Positions 3,001 through 50,505 are shown, numbered from the stretch's first letter. The stretch: DNA of 64,000 nucleotides from Candidatus Magasanikbacteria bacterium RIFCSPHIGHO2_02_FULL_48_18 (GCA_001784285.1 MFQC01000009.1:8828-72827), one strand, 5' to 3'. The notes: generated from the sequence alone by a model not told the origin. Program-made: numbers and translations.

Positions 3001-4125
3001 GCCTTTTTCCAATCCTTTCCCCACCAACCACCGTCCGGCCGCGTACCCGCTCGCGATGGTTGCCACTTTCTTTCCAAAATCAAGGACTCCCCCGACAAAA
3101 CTGCCCCCGACAGCGCCAACTTTTTGGACCGCCGTGAGCCCGACAAACAAAAATGCGATAGCAATAAAAAAATTTGCCATGTTTTCCCACGTGGTCACTT
3201 CGCTTGAGGACACTTTGAGCGTGCCCCCGGGAACGCCTGCCTGCTGAAGCACTTTTTGCGCGTCCGAGCCGTCAATATTGAGTCCCAAATCCGACATGGC
3301 AACGTCGCCCGTTCCAAGCGTGGCAAACGCAAGCCAGAGAAAGAATACCGCGACCGGCGCCACAATCACTTCTTTACCAAACATGGACCACCATTCTTTT
3401 GCGTACTGTTTGGTTTGCGGAATAACGTTCATGATATACGCCATTGGCGACAAAATAATCAACACCCACAATACAATGACCCGGAGTATCATCACAAACA
3501 AATACGCGCCAACAACCGCAAGTCCCATGAGCGCAAAAACAAAGGCCATAACCGCGCCGCCAAAGAGTTTAATGTCAATGCCTCCGGTCATAATATCTTC
3601 ACCGACCACATTGAGAATCGAGTTCATGCGGAGCATTTCAATAAGGTTGCCCCCGGCCGTGTTTTGGATGGCCGTCACAAAGGTCATGGTAAAGATATGC
3701 GCGGCGTCAATAATAAGGCCGGCAATGAGTTTGCTGAAATTGACAAGAAGCGCCGCCAAGATAAAATGCGCAAGCGTTTTTTTCCATTCGTATTGTTCAA
3801 TACCAAGGACCGTGCCAAACGCGATAACAAGCAATACCACCACAAAAAACATATTGGCAACGTCGCGCACCATAAACCAGCCGATGACGACGGTCGGTGT
3901 GTCAACATAGCCATTATATTTTGCGAGTTCGACAAAAAATTTGAAGAAAAACATGGTCAAGCTCATGAGCACAGTGGCAAGCTCAATCAAAATCCACGAC
4001 GCAAAGTGCAAGAGCGCGTCAAAAACGCCGGTTGCGACATCACCCAGCAAATCAAAAATCGCGTTTGCCGGTGTGGCGGTGAAAACCAGCCCGGAGACAA
4101 CAAAAAATAAGAAGATCGGCGTCAT
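1..4125 (-). CDS. Large polytopic membrane protein with a C-terminal charged-repeat tail, possibly TrbL/VirB6-like. The 3' end lies beyond the window start, so more than 1375 aa are encoded here.
   Basis: I translated this by hand. The minus-strand frame is open and stop-free from 4197 down to position 1. The six-frame track omits it, presumably because there is no stop in the window. The start is ATG 4125..4123, giving MTPIFLFFVVSGLVF.... The first roughly 330 aa contain at least eight strongly hydrophobic segments. They are followed by a K/E/D-rich soluble region with recurring motifs (EYQGY, EYHGYQ, EYKEY, WMxKxHxDEY). There is no Shine-Dalgarno site, as with most genes in this window. Confidence 0.8.
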   Translation of the reverse strand, partial: MTPIFLFFVVSGLVFTATPANAIFDLLGDVATGVFDALLHFASWILIELATVLMSLTMFFFKFFVELAKYNGYVDTPTVVIGWFMVRDVANMFFVVVLLVIAFGTVLGIEQYEWKKTLAHFILAALLVNFSKLIAGLIIDAAHIFTMTFVTAIQNTAGGNLIEMLRMNSILNVVGEDIMTGGIDIKLFGGAVMAFVFALMGLAVVGAYLFVMILRVIVLWVLIILSPMAYIMNVIPQTKQYAKEWWSMFGKEVIVAPVAVFFLWLAFATLGTGDVAMSDLGLNIDGSDAQKVLQQAGVPGGTLKVSSSEVTTWENMANFFIAIAFLFVGLTAVQKVGAVGGSFVGGVLDFGKKVATIASGYAAGRWLVGKGLEKGKKSLMNAPFIGGRSWIRAGKRLDEFRRQNKYIRHIPLIGGYNEEYQDKLDDRVEAVKKQQKDSRAKDMSKNEPPLSLAGTALVNKVFGQIPILKRLGQVDYEWDDEKGDFKYEQERVEKKNADGTTAYEMRDKVDKDGNKIKQKKYVGIVGLDAMTARRNFAEYQEMAAIQMRSPENKKSREHRNRERLLKEGRQLVVAAEDHEFEGWMEKEHADEYQGYAALDDEGKKAFREKKRTTTVKQQKEVEEDAPSFIDEFRHTPEFVEDEDKKFRNWIKAKDPVQYNGYKEMNTLQQWEFKKQHLEEFRKDSMVAPEQTQQFERWLQKENAGAYVNYTAADEPGKTKLITDKQKKKVTKSVEVQKDLGSLDEEFAKDPEVSAEQLKQFGQWLEVEHPNEYKEYAALSSDKSRSGWMKFTQIGADQEVKVEDEFLADPEIVAQQNKQFDAWMQKKHGDEYHGYQGMDEAGKAEFKRRKQKKTIKDERGKEVVIDSDSRLEEFRSNPANVKAVGDTISGINHPERWKGSKRTWVPKRDEGVYSRASRNAAQYIVQHETNRVAEEKLKEAQSKATEAVWMGPLGKKLAEQLGEAEIGAKIGEDIVKGMKNAHLEKVFESSLDKFRKMKDKGNLDLWLLQGNDAASVFARAIQQAKFAEEHEENMAIVKGETQSEVEGTFIEAPAQGKATYAQSFVASAKRIAESLNRVDEAGRAEFGGAALMRLAFHREQARMQGKEGVSMDVQKHMYGMLSNLAENANLDDAINSMGQAIERYETDEEYRNGLSPAERDEFEATKRAFGPEGEFKMLERVLNSEQRFVGEDGKVLMVPDGKGGEREAASVDELLENNVHGIEHKEHLIENADGSVVTQEEFLNNKYGAMTAVKKGSYYDEQGIILRDAEGNAITQLSAGQQVLEGQGKIKKIKKDGFADKDGKIIRIEDPNKGKKDWQTASSVQELFAGQVVLKGAFLKGGKVLKDDRGENITSPEQVFDAAMKGIERKYLGFIG

Positions 4126-4860: not shown

Positions 4861-5308
4861 AAATTTATATTAACATAAAAATCTCCCCGGAGGAAGATCT
4901 TTACGTTGACACACAGTTTCAACCAGTAGAAATCTAGTTGCTGTACAAAAATACAATATCACATATCTGGAAACTTTGTCAAGCGAAAGCCCGATGGTTT
5001 ACCCGATTAAAATACAATAGAGTAATCCATCGTTCTTTCACAAAATGACAATTCTCTCCATAATGGACGAGAACTGTCTTACAAATACAGCGCGTGTGAG
5101 GCGGAAATTGCTCTGCTTCCGGAAATACCCGGGAGAGAGCCATGAAAGCCTAATAATATTGCGAACTCCTAAAAGCAACACGGCGCCTGCCGAATGGAGC
5201 GGTTGGATGTGTCATCCTGATCAGAATGACATACCCAACTGCTCCACGGACAAGGCGAAACCGTGGGACCACAATGCCGCATCCAGGCGGCGAGACAGGA
5301 GGTGCCAC

Positions 5309-6043
5309 ATGGCACGTTTCATCGCCCTCGCCGCCACCCTGGCGGCGTGCTTCTTCCTCGCGTGCGAGGAGGAAGGGACTGGTCCCACCGACGGGACCAC
5401 TGCGACGACAACGGGCTCCGCCGCAGGCGAGCCCACCACCCCCAGCAACGACGGCAACGACTGCACCGACAACAACCCGTGCACCGAGGAGACGTGCGAC
5501 GGCGACGTTTGCACGACCCATACTGAGTCGTGCAACGACAACGGATGCACCGAGGAATGGTGCAACCAATGGGGGTGCTCCAGTTGCACCAACTGGAGCA
5601 GTGGCGCCTCGGGGTGCACAGGCACCCCGGGCGGCCCTACTGCCCCCATTGTCGACCCCGACCCCCCTGGCGACGACCCCGTCCCCCCGCCGGAGGTCGA
5701 CTGCTCGGCCTGGACAACTCTCCTTTCCGGCACGTTCTACGAGCCGGAGCTGATCGGGGAGTTCGAAGTCCCTGGTTTTATTCAGTACCTCGAACCGGAC
5801 TTCGAGGGGATCGTCGGCGCGGGCTACGGCCTGTGCCGGTCGTCTGTTGATGACGCAATCGGCGTCGTCGACAACGTGTGGGGTGTGCTCGATGGAGCAG
5901 GAAAGAACATCGCCTGTGGACCGTTCCCGGGCGATAGTGTGCTCCACTTCGAGCCGATCGACAGCGACTGCATCAAAATCGGAGGGACTGCCCTTACAAA
6001 CTGGAGCATCCCCAACGATTTTTTGATTGCATGCCGACTGTGA
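5309..6043 (+). CDS. GC-rich lipoprotein that is Cys-, Asp- and Thr-rich, with CxxxNPCTxExC-type repeats.
   Basis: AGGAGG lies 6 nt upstream of ATG 5309. The signal peptide with lipobox reads MARFIALAATLAAC. The repeats read CTDNNPCTEETCDGDVCTTHTESCNDNGCTEEWC. Local GC is roughly 65% against roughly 48% in the flanks. The longer track ORF from 5045 is probably an N-terminal over-extension. Confidence 0.7.
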   Translation: MARFIALAATLAACFFLACEEEGTGPTDGTTATTTGSAAGEPTTPSNDGNDCTDNNPCTEETCDGDVCTTHTESCNDNGCTEEWCNQWGCSSCTNWSSGASGCTGTPGGPTAPIVDPDPPGDDPVPPPEVDCSAWTTLLSGTFYEPELIGEFEVPGFIQYLEPDFEGIVGAGYGLCRSSVDDAIGVVDNVWGVLDGAGKNIACGPFPGDSVLHFEPIDSDCIKIGGTALTNWSIPNDFLIACRL

Positions 6044-6113: not shown

Positions 6114-6141
6114 AGAGCGTACCAAAAAATCCCCGTTCGGG
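6114..6141. terminator. Bidirectional intrinsic terminator.
   Basis: The sequence is AAAAAATCCCCGTTCGGGGGATTTTTT, a stem flanked by an A-run and a T-run. Confidence 0.7.
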
Positions 6142-6326
6142 GGATTTTTTGTTTGTCTTCGTTGAAGAAAAGGAATCCCTGCCTGCCGGTAGGCAGGGCA
6201 GGCAGGCTTCTGCGCCCAGGGCGCATCAGGATGACAACATCAAACCCAGAAAACTTAACCTCCGCCCAAGGCAGCCCGCCCGCCTTTGGCGGGGATCAGC
6301 CTTTGGCTGAAACTCAGTCAACTATT

Positions 6327-9300
6327 TTACTTCTGCTCCGGCACCACAATAATAACACCATGATAATAGGTCCATCGTTCTTTGTTATAATTATCCTCAC
6401 ACTCTTTATTTCCTCCGGCATTAAAATCATTATACAACCCCTCCTCACTCGGAATCATATCCTTATTCTTCCCGCCCGGAATCCATGCCGGGCCGCCGGT
6501 CGCGGAACTCTTTGACGCGTTGCACCAACCCCAGTTGTCAAGGACCTGTACCCGCGGGCGGTACGCGCACACTTTGGACGGTTCATAGCCAACCAAATCC
6601 ACGACGCCTTTTTTCTGCCACTCGGTGAGCGCGGAAAAATCCACATTCGCGCTTCCTGAAGAACATTCATACGTATACTCGGCCTTAAACGGCTTGTCGA
6701 CGCACGCGCGGTCGCTGTTGCCAAAGCGCGGTTTATTGTATGAATCAGTGTATGTTTGTTGGTACGATGGAAGATCTTTTTCCTTATAACACAAGAGGTC
6801 GTCAAATCCGAGAGCATGCGGACAATCGTCTTCTTTGTCGTACGCTTTGCAGGTCATAAGGTCGGGAAGCTGTTCTGAGCCGCCGCCCCAACACACCCCA
6901 ATATCGCCTTCGGAGAATTCGCAGAACGGTTTGTAGTTTTCGTAATACCCATGCGTTTTTTCGTTCGTAATATAACCGGTTGCCGAATCGTCCCAATCAA
7001 TCATAATGCGCCGGATGGGCATATGATTATCGTCGGCCGCGACAAAAAATTCGGCTGTGGCTTTGAACGTTTTTTGGGCTATATGCATGGTCGGTTCCGG
7101 CGCGTTGTTTGGCGCTTCGTCCGGATCATTATTGGGATCACGATCATAATTATACTTTGTGCCATTTTTTCCTGTAACAGTAAAATTGTGTTTGTCACCC
7201 GCAGTACATGGTCCATGTTCTCCATAACAACGGTATGGATTGAGCGAATAGACAACAGGCGGGCGATTATTGGTTGGTTTGTTATACTCTGATCCTTCAT
7301 CCCATGCCGTTTTACTCTCAAACTCATCCGGCTTCTCGCCCGTTTTGCGCATTTTTATAGAAAATGTTTTTGCAAACAATTGAGCGAGCCGACTCTTGCC
7401 AATATAATCCGGATCATAACTAGCATAATATGACCCAATGCCAAATTCCATATCACCGGGAATCGTTAAACCATCGCCCAAACTACTGCATCGGAAATCA
7501 TTGGTACCACTCCAATCCGGGATTGTTTGCCACATGTAATCCCATAAATAATCTGAACCACTTGGACCAATATTATCATCCGCCACGGGTTCGGCATTCA
7601 GTTCATTCGTACCCGCATAGATATTTTTTCCAAACAATTTTCCGCATGCGTATGGAACGCCCTGGTTATCATTAAAAGTATATTTGCGTAAGATACTATC
7701 GGTTTCCAAATCATCTTCAATTAAATCGAGAGACCCATATGGTGGATTTTCTGTTTCAAACCATTTTACCTCATCACTGAAAAATTTTGGTTCGCCTACA
7801 TCCCAGTGGGGTGATGGCGGATAAATTTGAGATGCCTGCCACACACGATTGGTCCACGCCTTATTCGTCGGTTGATCCGTATCAATCTTGGTGTCATCGT
7901 AGACGCTCGCAAATTCAGTACATCGGGGGTTGAGCTCAACCAGAACAGAGAGAAGCGCATGTCTTCCTACAGCATGATTTTTAACATCGTCATCATCATT
8001 TTTATATCTCTCGCTATATTTATACCACAAATTACCCCCGTCATAAGAGAGTTTTCCATCTCCATTATTGAATCGAATCATCCACACATTGTATGGCGCT
8101 TTCGCTTGTGTTTCTATAGGCACATTATACAAACTTTCTTCAATTATACTACGATATATTGTGTTTCCATCATCTTCTCCACTTTGGAAAATAGCGATAC
8201 CATAGACATGCTTTCCGTCATTAGAATCCCCTGTATACGCATCTTTGTTTATTCCAAAAAATTGCACAGCCTGAAATTTCTTTGTTTTGCCGAGAGCAAA
8301 TTCTTTCACACTAAAAGCATACGTTTCATCTTTTGGCGCATCCTCATGAAGAGGAGACTGGGGATTGTCTATTTTCATTGCTTGGAGATTTTCAAAATCT
8401 ATTTCAAGCCCTGGATAAAAATGAGGTAAATTGAGTTCATTATAAGCACCCGGATCTCCTGCCAACATCATCGGGCCCATATGAAATTTCTTGACATCTT
8501 GTTCATACAGATCCCCCTGCATTCGATAATCCTTGCCAAAGGTACCAATAATATACTTGGCAATAGGAGTCTTTCCTTTTCCATCTTCATCCCAAGCCTT
8601 TGTCTCTTCTACGTCGGTATATATATAACCGGAAGCATCCGTGACCGGAATTTTTTCGCTCAGCATGGACCACCAGCCCGGGCTGTCAATCCATAATACT
8701 TCCGTATTGGGACTTCCTTTCCCATCGTTAATGCCATGCCAACCATACAATTTCATAAACGTATATATTTTTTTCTGGTACGCTAAAGACTGCAATTTCA
8801 AATCGCTTCCGAGCTCGCCGGTAGTCGCCCCCTTTGGAATATTCATGGGTGGGAGATCGGCGATATTATCATATTGCGTACCGCCATCTGACCACCATGT
8901 AACCCAAAGAGGAGGCGCATTCAAAAGTGAAGTCCAGCGCTCATCGCCAGTATCCCCCGCAAGATCGTCTATTTCTGGACCCAAAATATCTTCCAATTCA
9001 ATATATACCGGAGCATCGCTATCATCATAGGTAAGAGAATTAGAATGAAAAATTTTATAATACATATCCTTTGAATAAGTTAACCCAGAGCTAGGATAAG
9101 CATAATTTATTGCTTTCAACATTTCGACACCACTCAACACCATACTTTGGTTATAGGCCGGCGCGGCGGCGGCGACCGTGCAATACACCTGGCCCTTGCC
9201 ATTATTGGAATCCAATGCCACATCATAGCCGGTTGTCGGATCGTTGTTATAAATATCAACACCGGTCACATTGACGTCCAACGGCAACCATGTTTGACAT

Positions 9301-12300
9301 GCATAGAGGCCGGTGCCACCTCCCAATGGGCGGCTGAGATCGCGCTCCAGACAAAAACCGCTTGTTCCCACGTGCATGGATTTGTTGGTATAAGGCGATT
9401 CTTTGCAAATCAATCCGTCGCCGCACTGACCGTCGTCGGTTTGGCATGGCTTGCCTATATTTCCCGCGTCTTCCACTTCGCCCGACCCCGAAAGGCCCGA
9501 ATCCGCCGGCAATTGACACGTTCTCGGACCGTGGCTTGCTTGCCCGAGCGGCCAATACCCAACATTGCCATCCGCATATTCGTTAACGAGATAACTGCAC
9601 GAACAGTCGCCCTTTTGGCAGATATTCGCTTTGTCGTATCCTTCTATTTTTTGCGTATATAATTTGAAAAACGAAGGCGACGGCGTGTTTCCTTCCACGT
9701 CTTTTTGTAGATCTTTTGCAAAATTGACCGGAAACGGACTGTCTTCTTCCGGATAGACTTTACAGCTTGCCGGGATAAGATCATCCTTGGTAAATTCATC
9801 CTTTTCACCCAAGCCCGAAATTGGGTAGACGCATTCGCCGCTGTAACACTTTCCTTTGCTGTCCTCGCCGCATAAGGCTCCATCATTTTTCGGCACTACA
9901 TTGCCAGAGACTGTTTTAAAACAAGAACTTTGATCCGGATTGGACGACGAATCGGCATAAAATTTGTACGCGAGGTAGCTGGTTTTCCCGGTCGTGCCGC
10001 TGTCAATGCCAATATAGGTAAAATCATTGATTTGGTATCGGTTAAAAAGCGAGTAGCCCGTATACTCCGGATCGCCATACCACGTCGTGTCGCGGGCAAT
10101 GTATTTTTCTTCAGTCAAAAACTTGGACTCATGCGGGTAATCGCTCTGTTCCACCCAATCCACGCAATCTTTGCCATCTCGTTCGGTGCATGCCCGATAA
10201 TCTTCGCACACGTCAAGCGTCAGTCCCGTTTCTTGCTGTTGTTTTGTCTGCGACGACCGGCAGGCCAGCCACTCGGCGCATACGCGATCGCGATTCACTT
10301 TCAAAATGATATTGCTGTCCCCGCCGGACACGCTACTTGCTTGTTTTGGCGAGACCAAATTGTCATTATTTTTTTCGCTGTCCGTATACGTCGCCTGGGC
10401 AAGATACGGACGGGTTGACTCGTCCACCTTATTCAACAACACGCACCCTTCTTTTAAGCTCACCTTGCCGCCGCATTCGTCAATACGATTGGTAATAGTA
10501 CTGTTGAAAATAACGGGATATGGGGTGCCGTTCGGATATTTGGCCGTTTTGTCAACCGGATCAACCAACTCGGTACAGCCATTAAATTGTTCCGGGCACT
10601 GCCCCACCAATCCATCATATTGAAATGCGCCATTGGAATAAATACCAAACGATGTGTCGGCAAGAATATACCCCGGATAACACGGAATTTTATTTTTATT
10701 TTGGCACATGCCGGAAGCGCATTCTTGATCGGCAGTACACAATGATCCGTTGGTACATTCGCCCACATCTTTCTTTACCCACCCGGAACGGGTAATACCG
10801 GTCTTGTCGACAAAAGACTCCTGATAGACGCATTGCGCGTTGCCATTTTTGAGCGGATCTTTAAAGAAAGACACCGTGTTTCCGGAATTGAACTGGCCGC
10901 ATCCGAGCAAATCCTCGCGGCACAGCACGCCTTCCGGACCAAGATATTTGTCCGGATTGTTTTTGATGTACTCTTTCTCAAAAGAATATGATCCCGCCGC
11001 AGTAAACCCGTCCGGGACCGCCTGTTCGCGCAATGCGATTTTTTCACATCCCAAAAATGCCTGATCGCACACGGTATTTTTGGTTTTGGTAAGGAAAATG
11101 GGGTCGTTTTCGGGCGTATCCGCGCCAATCAGCACGCTCGAATCATCCACAAACAAAATATCCGGCGAGGTATTGGTGCTGTTTTGTTGCACGGCAAGAA
11201 ATGTCACAAACGGCTGCAACTCAAATTTCCCAAAAGAATACGTTGCATCGGGCAATGCTATGGGGCCGGGAATATAACATATTTTTGAACCGGTTGGAGG
11301 CGTGCAGGTATGGTTGGCTCCATTCAAATTAACCGTGCAGGTATTCCCAGACGAGGTATTTTTATAGCACGCAATGTTGTAGACGATCCGGTCTTCCGCG
11401 CCATCCATGGCAATGGTATTTTGGGTGTCATATAGCGCGGTACATCCGACTGCTTCTGGCCGGCAGAGCGACGCAAAACCGGTCGCGTACCACAGCGTAT
11501 TTTGCGTATCCGTGTACATTTGACATCCCAACGCTTCGCCCGGCAACCCGTCGGTCGGGTCGCTGTCGCACGCTATAGGCGCGTTTGCACTCACCAATCC
11601 GCCCTCATACTCTATCGTGCGTTGCCATGAATTTTTGATAAGATGATATTGATCCACGAGACGCGTCAGGCGCACATTGTCCAGAAAATATCCTCCCGGT
11701 GTACCTTCGCGTTTGAATACCAAAGAAACCGGATCGGTTGTGTTGCCGGTAAATTGAACAGGACCGATATGATACAATTGCCAGGACTCCTGGAGCTCGA
11801 TTTTATTTTCCTTGTTCAAGAGAGGATCAAAGGTAAAATACCAGCTCGTCTCTGTCTTGCCATTTTGCGACAAGTTGATGGACAATTGTTGCCCCGCGAC
11901 GCCGCGCGCCCAGAACGAAAGCTCGTACCAATTGGCGGCATCCTCTGCATTGCCGCTTTGGATGGTTCCGGTTGCAATGATCCGTTCCACTTTTTCGGTA
12001 TTGACCAATAACGAATACAGCCCGACTTGGATAGATTCGGCCGCGACGGAAATGCTTCCGGCGGCGATATCGACTTTTTTCCAATCTTTTTTGGCATCGT
12101 TCAGGGCGTTTGCGTCGTCTCCGGACGGTTCAAAAATATCAAGAAATACCTGTTCGACATTGTTTCCCGAATTGCCTACATACAAACGGCACCCGCTGGC
12201 TTCTTTGGGACAAGCATTTGCCTGGCCGGGCGTATTGATGGTGTTATACACGCACGATCCTCCGGAGGCCGGATTATTTTCGTCGGGTTTGTATGCTCCG

Positions 12301-15300
12301 CCGTTCGCGCACACCATACAGCTCGCGGTACTCTCTGCCCACAATCCTTTTCGTTCGGCGCACAATTGTTTGGACGTATCGAGCGACAAAAGATCGTCTT
12401 TGACCAAGGTTACACTGGTTTTGCGCAATGGATGGCACAATTCATCGACCAGCGCGACCTCCGACAATACGCGATAAAACACCTGCCCGCTTTTATCATA
12501 GAGCGCACGACAATCAAGGCTTGCCGCGTCAATACTCCCGGGATTATTCACTAATATGCTATAGGTATCTTCATTGCACACGGCCTGTAAATTTTTGAGC
12601 GCCATATAACTCGTGTCCGCGTACGCGGGGGATCCTTTCGGGTAAGCGGCCGTGAGCGCATTTTTTACCACTGTATCTGTGACTAAATCAAACATCTTCG
12701 TGAGATACGAATTTTTGGTATCGTCGATCTGGAGCAGGCGATGCGTCCGCAAGACATACCCCTTCTGCACCGACCCTTCCCACGAATAAAATATTTTTTC
12801 ATTATCATCGGCCGGTTTTTCACAATAGGTGAGATCCGTGTAATATTCCAAACCTTCGCCGCCTTTTTCCACAGTATCGATATTGGTAAATTCATCACAG
12901 CCTTCATACGCAACCGTACAGGAGAGTCCCTGTTCTTTCATGAGATCTTGCGCGTATGTCGGCACAAAATACAATGGAAATTGCGCCCCCTCAAAATTGG
13001 TCTCCGCTTGCTTGTACGCGTCATACCCGACACAGCTCAGATCGCACTGATTATTTCCAATAAGCGCGGGAACCGCAGGTCCGCCCGCAAGCGGGGTATA
13101 GGCATCGCACCCAACTTCTTCGGCAACGCACGCTCCCGCAAAGTTGCCGCATTCGGGATTGCCGGAAAGAAAATTCAAATCCGCTTTTTTCTTTGGGTAT
13201 TCAATCGCCTCGGTTCCCGCATTGGTATCATAACATCCCAAATAGTCCGGCGCTTTTTTGAGATACAGGGTATTCTCCGGGCTCGTATCTTTCACATACG
13301 CGTTTGCCGCCGCGTCGAATACGCGAGGATAAAAGGCCGAACAGCCCTCATTGTCTCCGGTACACGTTTGCGAAGCGATTTTTGCATTGAAATAAAGTGT
13401 TGGATTTCTCCCCGCTTTTTTATACTCTTTCCATATTCCCGAATCGAGCATGCCCGGATATACCCATGCTTCATTGACCTGTTCCGCCCCATACGCGGAA
13501 CACCCCACGGATTGGGCCGAACACTCCCCGTACTCAAGCGTTCGCGTGAGGTAGGATGACACTGTGTTCGTTCCCGCGTTGACAAATGTTTGACAGGAAG
13601 TAAATGGCAAAGGACACGAATCTCCCGGTATTCTCCAGGTATTTTCTTCCTTTGTGCAGTATCCATAGAGTTGCGGCGCCTCGCACACGCTGTTTGGCCC
13701 TTCTGAAATGCATGTAGAAAAATCAAGACATTCTTCCATGCGCTTTGCGCCATCGCTCGTCAGCAATTGATCGCTATACCCATAGGCCATACAGCGGGTT
13801 TCCGGAACTCGAATCACCCAGTTCGGATCAATAAGATGACAATATGGATATTCCGCGCTCGGCGCTCCGCTTGGGTGGCACTGATCAAATCCTTTGACAA
13901 CCTCTTCAAGCTTCCATGGGTTGTCGGACGGCGACTTGAGCGCGGCAATTTCAAACCCAATGGGAAGAATGCGCGCTTTTCGTATTTTTTGGATATTGGA
14001 ATAACAATAGGCCTCGCGGAAACAATTGCGGTCCCGATTTTGCAATTCTCGTTTGGGAGAAATCAACTCCCAGTCGCCATGCAAAAACGACCCTTTCGTG
14101 TCAGCGAGCGCTTCGCCAATGGTCATGGCCCGGCCGGTCTTTGCCTGCGCGATGGCGTTTGCAAGCCCTTGTTCCATGACACAATTATTGATGCCAACCG
14201 GAGTATTGCCCTCCGGACACGCGGTAAATTGCTGAACGATATTAAAATTTTCTATCTGAACAGGCGTCTTGGTCAATAAAAAGCCAAAGACCTGTTGTGC
14301 AATGCTCTTTTTACTTGCTCCGCTTGGCGATTGGGAATACGGGTTGACCACCGAATCCGGATTTGCCGCGTCTTCTCCTCCTCCGCCTGAGGAAGGAAAC
14401 AATCCTCCGGTCAATAATTGCTCCAACAACTGCGTCGTCAAGGTATTCAAAAATACCGACGCGGCATACGGAAGTATTTGAATGGTTGGCGCGGCGTAAA
14501 TAGCACTAATCTGCCCGGCAGTAATTTCTTTTGATTTCAATCCAGTCAATTCCTTCGATTCTTCTTTGACCAGTTGTGCCGGTGAAATAGTTGTTCCGGA
14601 AATAAGTTCTTTCACTGCCTTAAAGCCGTCTCCTTCCATCCGCTCTTGGAGAGCGCCCAATTCCTGCTGGAAACTTTTCTGCCGCACCTGGCCCAAAGCG
14701 CCGAGCGAAACTCCAAAATCCGTACTGTCCGCGTTGAGAGAGGCGCTAAATGATTCGGCAATAAATTTTTGTCCGTAGGGACCGAATTTTTCTTCAAACG
14801 CTTCCGGGCTATACGCATTTTTGAGATCTTGCCAGGAACAATCCAGCCCTCCACCCATAAATTTTTGACTTAATCCCAACTGCAGACTGATTTGCAACGC
14901 TAAATTTGGCTGACAAATATCTATCCCAAATGCTTTTTCCCCCAACGTCTGGATGGATTGCGCGGCGGCATCAAGCGCCACATTTTCAAAATAGGTGGCC
15001 GCCCCTTCCTGAAAGACCAACGGCTCTTCGCCAGCCGCTTTGGTGGAAAGCCATGTCGCGGCGTCGTACGCCAACTTATTTAAAAAATAGGATACACCTT
15101 CAATGAGGGCGCTTAATCCCCCAGCAAGGAGACTCTGCCACATGTTGAAATCCAATTTTTTTTCCGCTTTTTCGGCCAGCGCTCTGGCTTCATTTCTGGC
15201 TTGAATGGCTTCGCGTTGGGCAGTCGCAGGCGCGTCAGTCCATTGTGCAAAGACCATTGTCGGAAAAAAAGAAAAAAGAAAAAGACAGAGACAAAAAATT

Positions 15301-15362
15301 GGCTTCATTTTTGAAGAAAAAAAATGGAAATAATGTTGTTTTCTTGAAAAGAAAGGAATCAT
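6327..15362 (-). CDS. Giant secreted Cys-rich surface protein, 3011 aa.
   Basis: A single uninterrupted ORF. The N-terminus MIPFFSRKQHYFHFFSSKMKPIFCLCLFLFSFFPTMVFAQ looks like a signal peptide; MKP at 15308 is an alternative start. The ATG overlaps the upstream gene's TGA, giving ATGA at 15359-15362. The protein has many Cys and Gly/Asn/Asp-rich stretches. No confident domain could be assigned by eye. Confidence 0.8.
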   Translation of the reverse strand: MIPFFSRKQHYFHFFSSKMKPIFCLCLFLFSFFPTMVFAQWTDAPATAQREAIQARNEARALAEKAEKKLDFNMWQSLLAGGLSALIEGVSYFLNKLAYDAATWLSTKAAGEEPLVFQEGAATYFENVALDAAAQSIQTLGEKAFGIDICQPNLALQISLQLGLSQKFMGGGLDCSWQDLKNAYSPEAFEEKFGPYGQKFIAESFSASLNADSTDFGVSLGALGQVRQKSFQQELGALQERMEGDGFKAVKELISGTTISPAQLVKEESKELTGLKSKEITAGQISAIYAAPTIQILPYAASVFLNTLTTQLLEQLLTGGLFPSSGGGGEDAANPDSVVNPYSQSPSGASKKSIAQQVFGFLLTKTPVQIENFNIVQQFTACPEGNTPVGINNCVMEQGLANAIAQAKTGRAMTIGEALADTKGSFLHGDWELISPKRELQNRDRNCFREAYCYSNIQKIRKARILPIGFEIAALKSPSDNPWKLEEVVKGFDQCHPSGAPSAEYPYCHLIDPNWVIRVPETRCMAYGYSDQLLTSDGAKRMEECLDFSTCISEGPNSVCEAPQLYGYCTKEENTWRIPGDSCPLPFTSCQTFVNAGTNTVSSYLTRTLEYGECSAQSVGCSAYGAEQVNEAWVYPGMLDSGIWKEYKKAGRNPTLYFNAKIASQTCTGDNEGCSAFYPRVFDAAANAYVKDTSPENTLYLKKAPDYLGCYDTNAGTEAIEYPKKKADLNFLSGNPECGNFAGACVAEEVGCDAYTPLAGGPAVPALIGNNQCDLSCVGYDAYKQAETNFEGAQFPLYFVPTYAQDLMKEQGLSCTVAYEGCDEFTNIDTVEKGGEGLEYYTDLTYCEKPADDNEKIFYSWEGSVQKGYVLRTHRLLQIDDTKNSYLTKMFDLVTDTVVKNALTAAYPKGSPAYADTSYMALKNLQAVCNEDTYSILVNNPGSIDAASLDCRALYDKSGQVFYRVLSEVALVDELCHPLRKTSVTLVKDDLLSLDTSKQLCAERKGLWAESTASCMVCANGGAYKPDENNPASGGSCVYNTINTPGQANACPKEASGCRLYVGNSGNNVEQVFLDIFEPSGDDANALNDAKKDWKKVDIAAGSISVAAESIQVGLYSLLVNTEKVERIIATGTIQSGNAEDAANWYELSFWARGVAGQQLSINLSQNGKTETSWYFTFDPLLNKENKIELQESWQLYHIGPVQFTGNTTDPVSLVFKREGTPGGYFLDNVRLTRLVDQYHLIKNSWQRTIEYEGGLVSANAPIACDSDPTDGLPGEALGCQMYTDTQNTLWYATGFASLCRPEAVGCTALYDTQNTIAMDGAEDRIVYNIACYKNTSSGNTCTVNLNGANHTCTPPTGSKICYIPGPIALPDATYSFGKFELQPFVTFLAVQQNSTNTSPDILFVDDSSVLIGADTPENDPIFLTKTKNTVCDQAFLGCEKIALREQAVPDGFTAAGSYSFEKEYIKNNPDKYLGPEGVLCREDLLGCGQFNSGNTVSFFKDPLKNGNAQCVYQESFVDKTGITRSGWVKKDVGECTNGSLCTADQECASGMCQNKNKIPCYPGYILADTSFGIYSNGAFQYDGLVGQCPEQFNGCTELVDPVDKTAKYPNGTPYPVIFNSTITNRIDECGGKVSLKEGCVLLNKVDESTRPYLAQATYTDSEKNNDNLVSPKQASSVSGGDSNIILKVNRDRVCAEWLACRSSQTKQQQETGLTLDVCEDYRACTERDGKDCVDWVEQSDYPHESKFLTEEKYIARDTTWYGDPEYTGYSLFNRYQINDFTYIGIDSGTTGKTSYLAYKFYADSSSNPDQSSCFKTVSGNVVPKNDGALCGEDSKGKCYSGECVYPISGLGEKDEFTKDDLIPASCKVYPEEDSPFPVNFAKDLQKDVEGNTPSPSFFKLYTQKIEGYDKANICQKGDCSCSYLVNEYADGNVGYWPLGQASHGPRTCQLPADSGLSGSGEVEDAGNIGKPCQTDDGQCGDGLICKESPYTNKSMHVGTSGFCLERDLSRPLGGGTGLYACQTWLPLDVNVTGVDIYNNDPTTGYDVALDSNNGKGQVYCTVAAAAPAYNQSMVLSGVEMLKAINYAYPSSGLTYSKDMYYKIFHSNSLTYDDSDAPVYIELEDILGPEIDDLAGDTGDERWTSLLNAPPLWVTWWSDGGTQYDNIADLPPMNIPKGATTGELGSDLKLQSLAYQKKIYTFMKLYGWHGINDGKGSPNTEVLWIDSPGWWSMLSEKIPVTDASGYIYTDVEETKAWDEDGKGKTPIAKYIIGTFGKDYRMQGDLYEQDVKKFHMGPMMLAGDPGAYNELNLPHFYPGLEIDFENLQAMKIDNPQSPLHEDAPKDETYAFSVKEFALGKTKKFQAVQFFGINKDAYTGDSNDGKHVYGIAIFQSGEDDGNTIYRSIIEESLYNVPIETQAKAPYNVWMIRFNNGDGKLSYDGGNLWYKYSERYKNDDDDVKNHAVGRHALLSVLVELNPRCTEFASVYDDTKIDTDQPTNKAWTNRVWQASQIYPPSPHWDVGEPKFFSDEVKWFETENPPYGSLDLIEDDLETDSILRKYTFNDNQGVPYACGKLFGKNIYAGTNELNAEPVADDNIGPSGSDYLWDYMWQTIPDWSGTNDFRCSSLGDGLTIPGDMEFGIGSYYASYDPDYIGKSRLAQLFAKTFSIKMRKTGEKPDEFESKTAWDEGSEYNKPTNNRPPVVYSLNPYRCYGEHGPCTAGDKHNFTVTGKNGTKYNYDRDPNNDPDEAPNNAPEPTMHIAQKTFKATAEFFVAADDNHMPIRRIMIDWDDSATGYITNEKTHGYYENYKPFCEFSEGDIGVCWGGGSEQLPDLMTCKAYDKEDDCPHALGFDDLLCYKEKDLPSYQQTYTDSYNKPRFGNSDRACVDKPFKAEYTYECSSGSANVDFSALTEWQKKGVVDLVGYEPSKVCAYRPRVQVLDNWGWCNASKSSATGGPAWIPGGKNKDMIPSEEGLYNDFNAGGNKECEDNYNKERWTYYHGVIIVVPEQK

Positions 15363-16060
15363 AGTTCTTCCTCAACACCAAGAGATGACGATGCGGTTTG
15401 ATTCGCCTGAAGTTCGGCGAGTGATTCTTCTGAAAGAATGCCGCTGTTCATAATCTGCTGTACTACCTGAACAAGCGTATTATCATCAATTTGTGACAAT
15501 TCTTCTTCGGTCATCTTGCCGGAAGCAAGCAACAATTCCCGTATTTGTTGAGGGCTATTGAGGAGGACATCAAAATCAATAGTGGATGATGTCTTATTTA
15601 CCACAGAATTGGCATAGTTTAAAATATCAGACACATCATTCGCCTGCTGAAATAATTCGGTACTGATATTTTTTGGTTGCCCCATCTCTTCGGATATGGT
15701 CCGGGTCGAACAACCCTGGCTATCCGGACAGAGCGGATCCGTCCCTGTATTTATTTCTTCTTTGTCCCCCACCCGATCGGAGTCCGTATCCGGCAGATAC
15801 GGACTGGTTTGGTAAAAATACAATTCTTCGTAATCATTGAGCCCGTCTTTGTCCGTATCAATACCCTGGAGCCGCGCGGTTTCGTCCATCACAAAGGCCG
15901 GCTTTGCCGGCGCCGATTTTTTTCGAGAAAGAAACGGACCGTAAATGGTATTCCGCATTTGAAAAAATCCCAACCCTACCGCTAAAATAGCAAAAAGAAG
16001 CAATAAGGCAAAACCGACCTTTTGCTCTTTGGTCAAATGTTGTGACGGGGTGTGTGCCAT
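15359..16060 (-). CDS. Membrane-anchored calcium-binding protein with thrombospondin-type-3 or dockerin-like D-x-D-x-D-G repeats.
   Basis: An N-terminal transmembrane segment reads VGFALLLLFAILAVGLGFF. Two Ca-binding-like repeats follow, DTDKDGLNDYEE and DTDSDRVGDKEE. The protein is translationally coupled to the giant ORF. Confidence 0.6.
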   Translation of the reverse strand: MAHTPSQHLTKEQKVGFALLLLFAILAVGLGFFQMRNTIYGPFLSRKKSAPAKPAFVMDETARLQGIDTDKDGLNDYEELYFYQTSPYLPDTDSDRVGDKEEINTGTDPLCPDSQGCSTRTISEEMGQPKNISTELFQQANDVSDILNYANSVVNKTSSTIDFDVLLNSPQQIRELLLASGKMTEEELSQIDDNTLVQVVQQIMNSGILSEESLAELQANQTASSSLGVEEEL

Positions 16061-16174: not shown

Positions 16175-18283
16175 ATGCGCCGACGGTACAGTCCCTGCAT
16201 GCAAAAAAAAATACTCATCCCGTTTCTTTGCATGGCGGCGGTTATGGTTTTTTTGTTCTTTGCCCATCGTTCGAGCAATACACTCCGTGATGTATACCAA
16301 AAAAACGAGTCCGTGGCGGTGCGCGATCGGCATGGGGCGCTTCTCTCTGTACTCCCAAACCCCAAAGGATACTACGCCATCTATGCCACCTCGACGCCGC
16401 AATCATTTGCCGAGATGCTCATCGCAAAAGAAGATCGATTTTTTTATGCGCATCCGGGGATCAACCCGATCAGCACAATTCGAGGAGCCATTCGAGCGCT
16501 CGAAAACCGTCCTCCGACATCAAGCACGTTGGCCCAGCAACTGGTCAAAATTTTGCTTGAAAACGAACAAGAGCGCACTGTGCGAAACAAAATAACCGAA
16601 GCATGGTATGCGATTGCGCTTGAACTTTTTACGACCAAACATGAAATCCTCGAGATGTACGCCAATTCGGCTTATTTTGGAAACCAAATCCAGGGCGTTC
16701 ATTCGGCAAGTCTTTTTTATTTTGGCGCGCGTCCGGAGGCGCTCTCGACCGAGCAAACGCTTTCTCTTCTTGCCGCAATGAATGCGCCGTCGGCAGACCA
16801 CCCGTTTTCGGGAAGCAACGCAAAAAAAACCGAACTCCTCGCCAACCGGCTCAATATATCGTTCTCTCCGGATTCCTTTGCGCCGGTCACAATGACGCAG
16901 ACACCGGGCAATTTTTTTGTATCCCCGGAATTTTTTGAACTTCGAACAGCAGGCGTTTCCTGCGCCGCGTCGTGCCGTGTGTCGATTGACGAGGCATTGT
17001 CAAAAAAAATACGAGCCATTCTGAACCGCGACATTGAACGGCTTGCCGAACAATCCGTGCAAAACGGCGCCGTGGTTGTTTTTTCGTTTCCGAAAAATGA
17101 ACTCCTTGCCATGGTTGGTTCGCTCAATCCGCTTTCCGACCTACAGGCAAGCAAAATCAATATGGCCATCCAGCCCCGCCCGATCGGATCCACCATAAAA
17201 CCATTTTTGTTTCTCAAAGGATTTGAACAGGGTTTGCGACCGTATTCGCTGGTCGACGACCGCGAATATAAATACGCCATTGCCGATACGTTTGCGTTTT
17301 ATCCCAAAAACTACAATTACCAATACCATGGCATCGTATCCCTCCAATATGCCCTCGCAAACAGCCTCAACGTTCCGAGCGTGAAAGTCCTCGAATATAT
17401 CGGCCTTGATTCGTTTTACCACTTTTTGGAAGATGATCTCGGATTTTTACCGCTCCAGCCGCTCAATACCTATCAACTCGGCATCGCGCTTGGCGGCCTG
17501 GAAATGGATCTCTTAACCTTGAGTCATTATTTTACGATATTTTCACAGCACGGGATGCTCAAGCCTTTGGAGATAATGCAGGAAAACCCTGGACAACGGC
17601 TGTCCCCTCCCATGGAAAAAACTTTCCCACAACCAAAACTGATTGCCGACGATGCGTACATCCAATTGGTGAATGCAATCCTCAGTGATCGAAAAACCGG
17701 CATAGACGCGTTTGGCCTCGTCAGTCCATTCAATCTTTTCGCGGATAATTACGCGCTGAAAACCGGCACCTCGCGGGAATATCATGACAGCTGGATTATT
17801 GGATACACCCCAGACTTTTTGGTGGGCGTATGGGTGGGGAACGCGGACAATACGGCCATGGACGCGGTATCCGGCCAAAATGGCGCCGGACGCATTTGGC
17901 ACGACGTCATGGAAGTGTTGTTGAATTCTCCCTACCATCGGCGGACGCCATTTCCCGACGATGCGCTCACATCGCTATTGCTGAATGGAACGGCAACGCA
18001 TGGATTGCCCAAAGAAAGGCCGGAAGGCCATCTCAGTATCCTCCTTGACACGGTCATCATCACGAGTCCGCATCAAAGCGACGTTATCCTCCTTGAACCC
18101 CATACGGCCATTCCCCTTCATGCCAAAACATCCGTGGATTGGTTTGTGAACGATGTCTTTTTATCTTCCGGCCCGGACGCGCTGTTTGAGCCAACATCTG
18201 CGGGAACGTACCGGATACGGGCGATGCCAAAAGACGATAAGGGAAAAGAAGAAACCATCACGCTTTTTATTGAAGAAGGATAA
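16175..18283 (+). CDS. pbpC: Bifunctional class A penicillin-binding protein of the PBP1C type (transglycosylase plus transpeptidase).
   Basis: GT51 motifs are present: EDRFFYAHPGINP and RPPTSSTLAQQLVKIL. Transpeptidase motifs are STIKP (SxxK), SLN and KTGTS. The length is about 700 aa, as in PBP1C. ATG 16199 (MQKKILIPFLCMAAV) is an alternative start. Confidence 0.8.
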   Translation: MRRRYSPCMQKKILIPFLCMAAVMVFLFFAHRSSNTLRDVYQKNESVAVRDRHGALLSVLPNPKGYYAIYATSTPQSFAEMLIAKEDRFFYAHPGINPISTIRGAIRALENRPPTSSTLAQQLVKILLENEQERTVRNKITEAWYAIALELFTTKHEILEMYANSAYFGNQIQGVHSASLFYFGARPEALSTEQTLSLLAAMNAPSADHPFSGSNAKKTELLANRLNISFSPDSFAPVTMTQTPGNFFVSPEFFELRTAGVSCAASCRVSIDEALSKKIRAILNRDIERLAEQSVQNGAVVVFSFPKNELLAMVGSLNPLSDLQASKINMAIQPRPIGSTIKPFLFLKGFEQGLRPYSLVDDREYKYAIADTFAFYPKNYNYQYHGIVSLQYALANSLNVPSVKVLEYIGLDSFYHFLEDDLGFLPLQPLNTYQLGIALGGLEMDLLTLSHYFTIFSQHGMLKPLEIMQENPGQRLSPPMEKTFPQPKLIADDAYIQLVNAILSDRKTGIDAFGLVSPFNLFADNYALKTGTSREYHDSWIIGYTPDFLVGVWVGNADNTAMDAVSGQNGAGRIWHDVMEVLLNSPYHRRTPFPDDALTSLLLNGTATHGLPKERPEGHLSILLDTVIITSPHQSDVILLEPHTAIPLHAKTSVDWFVNDVFLSSGPDALFEPTSAGTYRIRAMPKDDKGKEETITLFIEEG

Positions 18284-49115: not shown

Positions 49116-49143
49116 ACAATACGAAGAAAAAGAATATTCAATA

Positions 49144-50505
49144 CTATAGCATATTTTTTTGCTTTTGTCCAACACAATAAACACATAAAAGCATACTATT
49201 GAGCAGAAGCCCGCTATATTGTGTAAACATATAATGATCCAACGAGAGCACTATGAGATAAGGGATTAATATCCAACCCAAAAAAGAACGCGGCTGATTC
49301 TGGTAATAAAAAGAGAAGAGAAAAAATATCCCTGAAAGGGCCAATAAAGATACCCCCGCAAAACCAAACTCCGCCAAGAGCAAGAGAAAAACGTTGTGGA
49401 CAGGCTGATATTGCCAAATCGGCAAGAGAACACCAATACCCATGAGACTGGACGTGTAATTGCCGCCCCCAACCCCAATCCATGGATGCATTTTGACGAG
49501 GCTCATTGCTTGAGATATTTGGACAATACGGTCGGAAACCGCGTATGATTCATGACGGGAGGAAACAGAAAAACGCGTGCGGAGAATAGGAAAAAATGCA
49601 ACACCAAAAATCAATACGATGAAAACAACACCTGCCAAACCACACAATGACATTCGTGGCGGTGGCCGTTTCGTGTCCGCATTTCTGGAAAAAAGAAAAA
49701 AAGAGAAAAGAAAAGATACCGCCGCCAGCCACGCCGTGCGGCTAAAGGTAAAAAACAATGCCACGCCCTGAAGGAAAAGAAGAGACCAATACGCTTTTCT
49801 ATATTGCTGAGCCCGCTCGCCCAAAGACAAAAGTACCACTGTCATAAGCATGGCCACGACCAAATAGCCACCAAACATATTTGGATGAGAAAACGGACCA
49901 TGCGCCCGAAGCACTCGTCCGAGAGACTCGCTCGCGACAATCGATGTTCCCGCCTGGTCCAGGGCATGAAATGACAGCCCCAAGAGCGTAGAAGAAAACG
50001 TTGACTGCGCCGTAAATTGCCATATTCCTAAAAGCGCAGGGATGCCACTGCCGAGTGCAAACCATCGGGCAATATATGAAAACGAACAAGGACCGGCCCA
50101 CAACACGAAAAAAAATAAGAACGCTTCGACAATACGTATCCCTTGCTGAAACGCCAATGCCGAATCGAGCGCCCGCAATGAAGACATCAGCGCATAGAGC
50201 CAAAAAGAAAAAAACAACGCGACACATATCCGGTCAGGCGTCCAGGAAAATTGAAACCTTCCTTGGATTTTGGATTGCCGGATTTTTTGAACATACCACA
50301 CGCAAAACAGAACAATAATGCCCCACAGGAGAATCTCTGTCGCATACAGCCCTAAAACCCCATATTGGAACTTCATGCCGCCAATAATAGGCTCTCGATA
50401 CATCCAGATTGTTTGCCATGGAAAGAGAAAAAGAAAAAGAGCAATACCGAATTGCATCGCGGAAACCAAAGAAACATGTTTGATGGTGCGCATAAGTGAC
50501 ATCAT
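49144..50505 (-). CDS. O-antigen ligase / Wzy-family polymerase.
   Basis: About ten transmembrane helices are predicted. The Wzy_C-like loop GPFSHPNMFGGYL...FTFSRTAWLA is present. The start is taken at MMSLMRTIKHV; the track gives 50586. Confidence 0.65.
   Translation of the reverse strand: MMSLMRTIKHVSLVSAMQFGIALFLFLFPWQTIWMYREPIIGGMKFQYGVLGLYATEILLWGIIVLFCVWYVQKIRQSKIQGRFQFSWTPDRICVALFFSFWLYALMSSLRALDSALAFQQGIRIVEAFLFFFVLWAGPCSFSYIARWFALGSGIPALLGIWQFTAQSTFSSTLLGLSFHALDQAGTSIVASESLGRVLRAHGPFSHPNMFGGYLVVAMLMTVVLLSLGERAQQYRKAYWSLLFLQGVALFFTFSRTAWLAAVSFLFSFFLFSRNADTKRPPPRMSLCGLAGVVFIVLIFGVAFFPILRTRFSVSSRHESYAVSDRIVQISQAMSLVKMHPWIGVGGGNYTSSLMGIGVLLPIWQYQPVHNVFLLLLAEFGFAGVSLLALSGIFFLFSFYYQNQPRSFLGWILIPYLIVLSLDHYMFTQYSGLLLNSMLLCVYCVGQKQKNML

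Follow-up and report, generated by a model that had tools for sequence, protein, structure and literature searches.

The 64,000-nt window analysed here, which is the whole stretch from Candidatus Magasanikbacteria bacterium RIFCSPHIGHO2_02_FULL_48_18 (GCA_001784285.1, MFQC01000009.1:8828-72827), encodes two adjacent proteins that form a real, deeply conserved and tightly linked pair within one operon. The smaller one is a single-pass membrane protein of 233 aa with two predicted thrombospondin type 3 repeats (hereafter the TSP3 protein) and the larger one is a secreted, Cys-rich protein of 3,011 aa (hereafter the giant). Comparison with related loci indicated that the pair is ancient, single-copy and vertically inherited in Patescibacteria. 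With a probability of about one half, we read it as a tethered cell-surface module for recognition or adhesion, which may serve a machine resembling a type IV secretion system (T4SS).

Conservation and linkage of the two genes

The two open reading frames (ORFs) and their ATGA overlap were recovered from sequence and translation as given in the preliminary description of this DNA, both ORFs being on the minus strand (Table 1). At the junction (GAGGAAGAACTATGATT), the TGA of the TSP3 protein gene shares the ATGA with the ATG of the giant. A Shine-Dalgarno-like GAGGA is located ~7 nt upstream of this ATG and the ribosome-binding site of the giant falls inside the TSP3 protein gene. Base composition was even over the whole region. 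In the NCBI annotation the TSP3 protein and the giant are both called "hypothetical protein" (HAZ28857.1 and HAZ28856.1); the start of the giant is the same there (3,011 aa), while a second gene caller placed it at Met36. The 90% identity cluster to which the giant belongs contained exclusively identical members or fragments, so that no microdiversity analysis could be drawn from them.

One genome per species was scanned for relatives. At least 575 stretches encoded a relative of the giant and the best 80 loci were analysed together with their flanks. A first search yielded 83 full-length giants, almost all of 2,600-3,400 aa. An exhaustive profile search with the N-terminal 1,196 aa extended the family to 1,630 clusters at 50% identity (E <= 1e-3), 1,233 of which were retained at E <= 1e-30. 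Lengths in the 1,630 clusters were nearly all comprised between 2,500 and 3,300 aa, and the profile match in the relatives invariably began at about residue 40-70. Relatives of the TSP3 protein amounted to 418, of ~200-330 aa. Each locus displayed one copy of each gene and no paralog of either was found in the window.

A homolog of the TSP3 protein occurred immediately 5' of the giant, on the same strand, in every one of the 77 informative loci (77/80 in total), the remaining three having no upstream DNA and hence being uninformative in this respect. The same order, i.e. release factor (RF)-Sua5-KsgA-TSP3 protein-giant, was observed in three loci whose giants were only 25-33% identical. The association on which the preliminary description had staked its proposal is thus found well outside the genome of the window. 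The distance from the stop of the TSP3 protein gene to the first ATG of the giant was -4 to +30 nt in 60 of the 77 loci. The ATGA overlap is not the rule in this family: tight operon linkage is what is kept, and the translational coupling by overlap put forward in the preliminary description is specific to the genome of the window. Three loci (L016, L022 and L059) displayed gaps of 0.46-1.3 kb between the two genes, which may correspond to an inserted gene or to a mis-assembled start. Many of the related metagenome-assembled genome records bear the title 'uncultured Gammaproteobacteria bacterium' (binchicken co-assemblies), and a single one that of 'Candidatus Udaeobacter', despite a Patescibacteria-specific locus and synteny; the taxonomy of these records is evidently wrong or a placeholder.

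The gene KsgA was found directly 5' of the TSP3 protein gene in 71 of the 80 loci. Insertions have split KsgA from the TSP3 protein gene (by PBP1C and alpha-2-macroglobulin genes, in the window) and the giant from T4SS genes (18/46 loci), and essentially never the TSP3 protein gene from the giant. Pairwise distances between TSP3 proteins correlated more strongly with those of the domains of the giant (r 0.73-0.84) than with those of KsgA (0.66). Once the KsgA component was removed, partial correlations between the TSP3 protein and the domains of the giant were 0.44-0.71, those among the giant's own domains being 0.51-0.86. This rate correlation is consistent with a shared functional constraint on both proteins, for which it would constitute weak evidence.

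Architecture of the TSP3 protein and of the giant

Hydropathy and translation of the TSP3 protein confirmed the N-terminal transmembrane (TM) helix and the acidic C-terminal region reported earlier. Two Ca-binding DxDxDG loops had also been reported: both acidic loops are present, the second one (DTDSDRVGDKEE) deviating from strict DxDxDG. Loop 2 is followed by a Cys pair that was invariant in the family alignment (C111/C117), and 104 of 120 homologs contained exactly two Cys. At E <= 0.01, Pfam TSP3_bac (PF18884) was matched by 40 of the 43 aligned family members (best 4.1e-10). The TSP3 protein of the window reached 24.2 bits (E 3.1e-5, cut-off 25), with its best stretch at aa 99-110. By contrast, dockerin (PF00404) was matched by none of the 43 members, nor by the protein of the window at E <= 0.1. 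Between the two identities that the preliminary description had left side by side, the TSP3 type was therefore retained and the dockerin type ruled out. Profile comparison with the PDB gave merely a non-significant likeness to EF-hand loops (E >= 0.018). The motif itself suggests that the two repeats would bind Ca2+.

In 82% of the 120 homologs, Lys and Arg were more abundant in the N-flank than in the C-flank of the TM helix (mean 3.7 vs 2.0). This family-wide charge bias supports an N-in/C-out (type II) topology, in which the TSP3 domain would be extracellular. The invariance of residues K14, G16, F23 and Q34, in the helix and its flanks, exceeds what a passive membrane anchor would require and hints at an intramembrane partner. 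The cytoplasmic stub and TM helix (aa 11-34, 15959-16030) follow the consensus LTxEQKxGF...LGFLQMRNTIYGPF. Further downstream, the acidic C-terminal region contained the conserved motif LL.DP..LR.LLL.TG.I..E.L..IDD..L, with an invariant R174; it displayed no Pfam or PDB match and is a candidate interaction surface.

The giant contains 96 Cys (3.2%) and the invariant columns of its alignment were mostly Cys. Its single hydrophobic segment (aa 14-42) is N-terminal and ends in VFA followed by Q, the P-A-x-A motif being kept in the family consensus, which designates it as a Sec signal peptide; the signal peptide and the many Cys residues of the preliminary description were thereby borne out. It bears neither a C-terminal hydrophobic segment nor an LPXTG or sortase signal, so that the giant lacks an anchor of its own. 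Its earlier portrayal as having no obvious repeats was partly accurate at most, given a short C-x4-6-G-C-x1-3-[YFW] motif that occurred seven times (0.22 expected from shuffling) and recurred in homologs.

Along the giant, conservation delimited a universal core (aa ~50-2080), a hypervariable region (aa ~2081-2450) and a moderately conserved C-terminal part. The whole protein had nothing significant in Pfam or NCBIfam. Structure models were built from shallow alignments (33-34 rows), which probably limits their confidence. The AlphaFold model of aa 45-1240 had a mean pLDDT of 66, with confident stretches at aa 374-564 and 784-1234. For aa 45-370, neither a family nor a fold was matched. The domain at aa 374-564, with invariant R461, G469, E471, W515, R541 and D547, was modelled confidently, yet it had no PDB match either. 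At the end of this first part, the family profile of aa 45-1240 matched CBM4 modules in the PDB (1gui, E 4.5e-5; 3jxs; 1k42). Foldseek likewise recovered CBM22 and CBM4 folds (TM-score relative to target 0.63-0.67, E ~1e-5), and nothing else convincing was found with the model of aa 45-1240. Pfam CBM_4_9 was recorded for ~20 homologs, the giant of the window scoring 13.8 bits against a cut-off of 25.9. Both profile and model thus predict a CBM4/22-like beta-sandwich in the giant, and this domain would be expected to bind glycans.

The model of the following core (aa 1241-2080) was beta-rich (mean pLDDT 65.5). It had no PDB fold match (best E 0.76), no solved relative by profile and no Pfam domain in 55 family members. 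The distal part (aa 2081-3011) was compared through sequence profiles (Pfam and PDB) covering aa 2440-3011, where no Pfam match (52 family members) and no PDB profile match were recorded. The C-terminal region ends with FFAxADxNxMPIRR..DWGDG...VQVLDNWGWCNG...IIVxP. A PKD domain, considered there for the DWGDG...DNWG motif, was rejected since neither the giant of the window nor the 52 members matched PKD and no PDB profile match was found.

The divergence of the giant is markedly mosaic. Between aa ~2081 and 2450, identity to homologs fell to 0.04-0.14 with 32-82% gaps, and aa 2101-2400 contained no Cys at all. The variable part extends into ~aa 2750, the last ~250 aa being conserved. Among eight pairs of close relatives, five displayed a clear mosaic pattern (the four of Table 2 and P0048/P0049), the pattern was weaker in P0047/P0050, and two pairs had diverged uniformly. 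Such a combination, in which a stable scaffold bears a distal region that evolves fast and is rich in indels, would be expected of a recognition surface subject to diversifying selection or recombination.

Table 1. Location of the features of the gene pair and its surroundings (positions in the window)
Feature	Position	Strand	Basis
TSP3 protein gene (233-aa TSP3-repeat single-pass membrane protein)	15359..16060	minus	ORF, translation, 418 homologs
Giant gene (3,011-aa secreted Cys-rich protein)	6327..15362	minus	ORF, translation, 83 homologs, 1,630 clusters
ATGA stop/start overlap, TSP3 protein to giant	15359..15362	minus	sequence
TSP3 protein: predicted transmembrane helix, aa 15-33	15962..16018	minus	hydropathy, alignment, family charge bias
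TSP3 protein: predicted TSP3 loop 1, DTDKDGLNDYEE, aa 68-79	15824..15859	minus	invariant D68, T69, D70, D72, E79
TSP3 protein: predicted TSP3 loop 2, DTDSDRVGDKEE, aa 91-102	15755..15790	minus	invariant D91, D93, D95, D99, E102
TSP3 protein: acidic C-terminal region, aa ~125-233	15362..15688	minus	consensus, invariant R174
Giant: signal peptide, aa 1-39, predicted cleavage between VFA and Q	15246..15362	minus	sole hydrophobic segment of the giant
Giant: conserved N-terminal region, aa 45-370	14253..15230	minus	kept in all 82 homologs; low-confidence long helices
Giant: most conserved domain of the family, aa 374-564, with YCYSNIQKLRKARILPLGFEIAA...CHLIDPNWV	13671..14243	minus	highest identity window
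Giant: predicted CBM4/CBM22-like beta-sandwich, aa ~1070-1235	11658..12155	minus	PDB profile, Foldseek
Giant: conserved beta-rich, Cys-rich core, aa 1241-2080	9123..11642	minus	conserved in all homologs
Giant: hypervariable, nearly Cys-free region, aa ~2081-2450	8013..9122	minus	identity, gaps, Cys count
Giant: moderately conserved C-terminal region, aa 2451-3011	6330..8012	minus	alignment
PBP1C gene	16175..18283	plus	Pfam/NCBIfam
Bacterial alpha-2-macroglobulin gene, 2,161 aa	18286..24771	minus	Pfam/NCBIfam
Terminator-like hairpin, ~130 nt past the giant stop	6177..6198	minus	consensus scan only
Second, bidirectional hairpin	6123-6151		consensus scan only
Convergent 332-aa Cys-rich ORF	5045..6043	plus	ORF
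Putative VirB6/TrbL-like polytopic membrane protein, divergent; gene runs off the window	1..4125	minus	translation, TM segments, homolog P0225

Table 2. Percentage identity between closely related giants in successive regions
Pair	aa 45-370	aa 374-700	aa 701-1240	aa 1241-2080	Variable region	C-terminus
P0080/P0082	100	99	99	93	39 (67 gap columns)	74
P0035/P0037	97	98	95	95	58	79
P0027/P0267	96	98	96	97	52	65
P0067/P0069	94	99	97	89	51	62

T4SS-like neighbourhood and possible role of the pair

The context of the pair was examined in the 46 loci with at least 3 kb of sequence 3' of the giant. Unbiased clustering of the ORFs revealed a fixed same-strand order: giant, VirB6-like gene, two genes without assigned function, PrgI, TrsD and VirB4. 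The VirB6-like gene was found in 28 of these loci, PrgI and TrsD in 21, and VirB4 in 16, several more being cut off by the end of the locus. The VirB6-like gene also occurred 3' of the giant in deep-branching loci (L081 and L082). Assignments in the related loci relied on Pfam for PrgI (VirB3-like, 41.9 bits, cut-off 27), on an E value of 1.1e-7 for TrsD and on NCBIfam conju_CD1110 for the VirB4 ATPase (356 bits, cut-off 325). In the genome of the window, the position of PrgI, TrsD and VirB4 would be beyond the left edge of the window. On these matches the neighbouring cluster is of the Patescibacteria T4SS-like kind and of MPF-FATA (monoderm) type. Two conserved proteins (~340 aa and ~380-530 aa) without Pfam match were always encoded between the VirB6-like gene and PrgI (e.g. 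L013:23934-25061 and L013:25049-26653; L081:17840-18880 and 18914-20185), and are candidates for undescribed T4SS subunits, such as a VirB8-like one.

Patescibacteria T4SSs were recently surveyed (2025) and described as homologous to monoderm conjugation machinery, devoid of relaxase and of unknown function (PMC12102498). The survey reported the detection of no adhesin of the kind of MPF-FATA PrgB and mentioned neither giant nor TSP3 proteins; it also noted that cell contact in monoderm T4SSs is provided by adhesins rather than pili (PMC12102498). Epibiotic growth of the one Saccharibacterium species to which Tn-seq was applied required the T4SS as well as several surface proteins that bind glycans, all of which were essential (PMC10633639; PMC11665869).

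In the mechanism that we favour, the giant would be exported by Sec through its cleavable signal peptide and would fold outside the cell into a ~330-kDa, disulfide-stabilised and mostly beta-rich protein. The TSP3 protein would be a type II protein displaying its two repeats, a small disulfide loop and the acidic C-terminal domain. Its most likely function would be to hold the giant at the membrane or to position it there, which is proposed because the giant has neither a membrane nor a cell-wall anchor. The conserved N-terminal ~2,000 aa of the giant may act as a stalk or scaffold, and the variable distal part, together with the CBM-like domain, as a recognition surface for the envelope of a partner or host cell. 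Ancestrally located beside the T4SS-like cluster (VirB6-like, PrgI, TrsD and VirB4), the pair may supply the contact or adhesin function otherwise missing from this pilus-poor, monoderm-type machine. We infer physical tethering, Ca2+ dependence, binding of glycans or of a host and a functional tie to the T4SS from genome evidence. A more specific version can be formulated, in which the pair is the extracellular contact module that the T4SS-like machine of Patescibacteria is missing, the TSP3 protein docking the conserved N-terminal scaffold of the giant, in a Ca2+-dependent way, at the VirB6-like membrane complex, and the fast-evolving Cys-free insert and the CBM-like domain setting which host envelope is recognised. 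This version is doubtful; if it were true, the giant gene would determine host range across a whole class of episymbionts not yet cultivated.

Several observations weigh against a tethered recognition or adhesion module. The preliminary description had imagined a cohesin-dockerin-style or Ca-dependent anchoring pair. No cohesin was detected over the whole giant with Pfam and NCBIfam or among the Foldseek matches of aa 45-2080, which leaves the cohesin-like receptor unsupported, and no other known TSP3-binding domain was found in the giant (Pfam; fold search of aa 45-2080). The obvious docking candidate, i.e. the N-terminal 325 residues of the giant, was modelled as long helices with pLDDT below 50, and mirror-tree analysis attributed to this N-terminal domain no stronger co-variation with the TSP3 protein than to the other domains. 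No fused (Rosetta-stone) form of the two proteins occurred among the 150 best family members. In the TSP3 protein of the window (row P0084), the C-flank of the TM helix is more basic than the N-flank, so that the topology of this copy rests on the family trend. Since adjacency to KsgA, an unrelated gene, is equally conserved, synteny alone is no proof of shared function here. As to the T4SS, its link with the giant is not obligatory, since any T4SS gene is missing within 10 kb in 18 of the 46 loci. In the window, the path from the giant to the putative VirB6-like gene is interrupted by terminator-like hairpins, a convergent ORF and a tRNA.

Competing explanations are weighed here in the order envelope scaffold, maturation factor, enzyme or toxin, and frozen synteny. 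The giant might be a scaffold or an S-layer-like envelope component to which the TSP3 protein provides Ca2+-dependent attachment, with no specific role in host recognition or in the T4SS. This would suit a vertically inherited, single-copy gene residing among housekeeping genes (GroEL, RF, Sua5 and KsgA), whose length is held to 2,500-3,300 aa over 1,630 clusters and whose pairing persists in the 18/46 loci without a nearby T4SS gene. Yet a hypervariable, indel-rich region on a near-identical protein would be unusual in a purely structural lattice, and the CBM-like lectin fold suggests ligand binding. Moreover, known S-layer proteins are usually much smaller than the giant and Cys-poor, and we consider this explanation unlikely. 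It is distinctly unlikely that the TSP3 protein is a maturation, export or regulatory partner instead of a tether, for instance a membrane-bound holdase or a factor loading Ca2+ while the giant emerges from Sec. TSP3 repeats are extracellular Ca2+-binding structural or adhesive elements and, to our knowledge, are not known as chaperones; in addition, the TSP3 protein co-evolves with the whole ectodomain of the giant, which a stable complex fits at least as well as a transient one. In favour of such a partner are the strict co-occurrence, the operon order with the small gene first, the absence of a recognisable docking domain in the giant and the conserved K14, G16, F23 and Q34, which suggest intramembrane contacts whose partner could be the translocon or a different membrane protein.

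If the giant were instead an enzyme or toxin secreted against the envelope of the host (wall-degrading or pore-forming), its variable region would be an exchanged module for activity or targeting, and the small protein would play an accessory or protective part. CBM modules are typically attached to glycan-active enzymes, the invariant R, E, D and W residues of aa 374-564 could form an active site, and the mosaic C-terminal divergence recalls polymorphic toxins. However, no catalytic or toxin family was matched in Pfam or NCBIfam by the giant of the window, nor by 52-55 members over aa 1241-2080 and 2440-3011, and the CBM was the sole fold match in the modelled aa 45-2080. Moreover, unlike in polymorphic toxins, the variable part lies inside the protein (aa ~2081-2450, reaching into ~2750) and conservation resumes over the final ~250 aa, the extreme C-terminus included; no conserved same-strand small gene resembling an immunity gene followed the giant in related loci, which altogether makes a toxin or enzyme improbable. 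Finally, the adjacency could merely be the frozen order of two independent envelope proteins in a lineage with very stable synteny, given that unrelated genes are also kept (KsgA beside the TSP3 protein gene in 71/80 loci; RF-Sua5-KsgA in distant genomes). This appears very improbable in view of the 77/77 same-strand adjacency, mostly at -4 to +30 nt and with the ribosome-binding site of the giant inside the TSP3 protein gene, of the insertions that broke the neighbouring junctions KsgA-TSP3 protein and giant-T4SS and essentially never this one, and of evolutionary rates that remained correlated beyond the KsgA control.

Read as a tethered recognition or adhesion module, the pair can be compared with several known systems. 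In Enterococcus pCF10, prgA-prgB-prgC are found upstream of prgH (VirB6-like), prgI (VirB3-like) and prgJ (VirB4-like). Operons of this PrgB type share with the present one a large secreted surface protein encoded 5' of a VirB6-like/PrgI/VirB4 block of MPF-FATA type. Yet the giant, which is about twice as long and rich in Cys, displayed no sequence or fold similarity to PrgB, bears no LPXTG or sortase signal and is paired with a TSP3 membrane protein. In Pfam and NCBIfam, neither protein of the pair displayed homology to T4SS components (VirB1-11, PrgA/B/C). By analogy, the position of the pair at the head of the T4SS-like cluster parallels that of adhesin genes in Gram-positive conjugation operons, and the pair may have a cell-contact role for that machine. 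A further difference from pCF10 is that the Patescibacteria cluster is chromosomal and without relaxase (PMC12102498), its linkage to the giant being absent in 18/46 loci.

The cohesin-dockerin anchoring of cellulosomal scaffoldins is similar in concept, the idea in both cases being that a very large extracellular cargo, which also bears a CBM, is held at the cell surface by a Ca2+-binding module whose DxDxDG-type loops are duplicated. Such systems differ by their dockerin (0/43 here, TSP3_bac being found instead), by their cohesin, of which no counterpart was detected in the giant, and by the location of the Ca-binding module, which is carried here by the membrane protein and not by the cargo. 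The same repeat family (PF18884) is encountered in OmpA-family proteins and in CglD and MtsD of Myxococcus, the latter two having roles in cell-cell cohesion and adhesion complexes. NCBIfam alignments of the TSP3 protein to the TSP3 regions of MtsD and CglD were weak (18 and 15 against equivalog cut-offs of 800 for MtsD and 400 for CglD), and the present protein is distinguished by having two repeats, 233 aa, a single membrane pass and neither a VWA nor an OmpA domain.

Near-identical N-terminal scaffolds with divergent, indel-rich distal regions in close relatives are also displayed by phage tail fibres and polymorphic adhesins, in contrast to which the giant is a chromosomal cellular gene without phage context and is conserved again at its extreme C-terminus. 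Giant membrane or surface proteins from bacteria in the candidate phyla radiation (CPR) were proposed to mediate host attachment in Vampirococcus lugosii (PMC8080830). Like the present giant they are very large, predicted to be surface-exposed, encoded by a host-dependent ultra-small bacterium and read as recognition or attachment factors (PMC8080830). Theirs carry adhesion domains (PKD, fn3, integrin and DUF11), of which the present giant has almost none, whereas the latter constitutes a single orthologous family with a fixed partner gene and conserved synteny. From these comparisons, the pair would work like an adhesin-plus-tether system, close to cohesin-dockerin and PrgB in concept and a member of neither.

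The only known families in the pair are the TSP3 repeats and the CBM-like domain. No description of the orthologous giant family, of its obligate TSP3 partner, of the mosaic architecture or of the position by a T4SS-like cluster was found in the searchable literature, in agreement with the preliminary description, which held that the system had not been described. Patescibacteria represent a large share of uncultivated bacterial diversity and apparently live attached to other cells, their contact molecules being largely unknown outside a few cultivated Saccharibacteria. The giant family is single-copy, orthologous, unannotated, always accompanied by a putative Ca-binding membrane protein and frequently part of the first gene block of a T4SS-like cluster. 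Within the ABY1/Magasanikbacteria part of the radiation, the pair is accordingly a concrete candidate for a role in recognising hosts and setting host range. It also offers some 2,500 residues of a protein rich in disulfides, the modelled parts of which lack any relative of solved structure.

Surroundings of the pair in the window

The T4SS-like context, the CBM-like domain, the hypervariable Cys-free region and the upstream PBP1C and alpha-2-macroglobulin genes were all absent from the preliminary description. Same-strand genes 5' of the pair coded for GroEL, a release factor, Sua5, an MFS transporter, a DUF4015 hydrolase and KsgA. The convergent PBP1C and alpha-2-macroglobulin genes, a classic pairing, are located between KsgA and the TSP3 protein gene. 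None of the 80 related loci carried a counterpart of them within 10 kb of the pair, and hence they appear to be a lineage-specific insertion into the conserved KsgA-TSP3 protein-giant order.

On the 3' side of the giant were found, in this order, the two hairpins, the convergent Cys-rich ORF, a tRNA-Ser and the long minus-strand ORF that runs off the window. The convergent ORF, located where GC content is slightly higher, contains 22 Cys, a Cys-rich stretch of the type CTDNNPCTEETCDGDVCT... and an internal segment that is hydrophobic and lipoprotein-like. It displayed no Pfam or NCBIfam match and no tblastn match in the 80 related loci; it might code for a secreted protein specific to this lineage, or it might not be a real gene. 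The product of the long ORF combines a signal peptide and multiple TM segments (the latter within aa 1-340) with a charged tail of ~1,000 aa (~nt 1-2865; 35% K/R/E/D), in which a motif of ~50-65 aa, F..W......EY.GY...D..GK, is present in five copies (aa 580, 646, 694, 760 and 819). This ORF has no Pfam match of its own. A homolog of it, P0225, which is 41% identical and bears the NCBI name 'type IV secretion system protein', passed the TrbL/VirB6 cut-off (28.5 > 25.9), and P0218 remained below threshold for TrbL/VirB6 (20.6 bits). An rRNA operon, considered for the first 5 kb because of the purine-rich minus strand and of the absence of listed ORFs there, was discarded: Rfam found nothing and the region is occupied by this long ORF.

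Other large predicted surface proteins are encoded on the minus strand of the window: a 1,901-aa protein with fn3 and Ig-like domains (43479-49184), a 568-aa DUF5667/CarboxypepD_reg protein (40831-42537) and a 703-aa CARDB protein (38559-40670). An O-antigen-ligase-like gene (Wzy_C) adjoins these genes.

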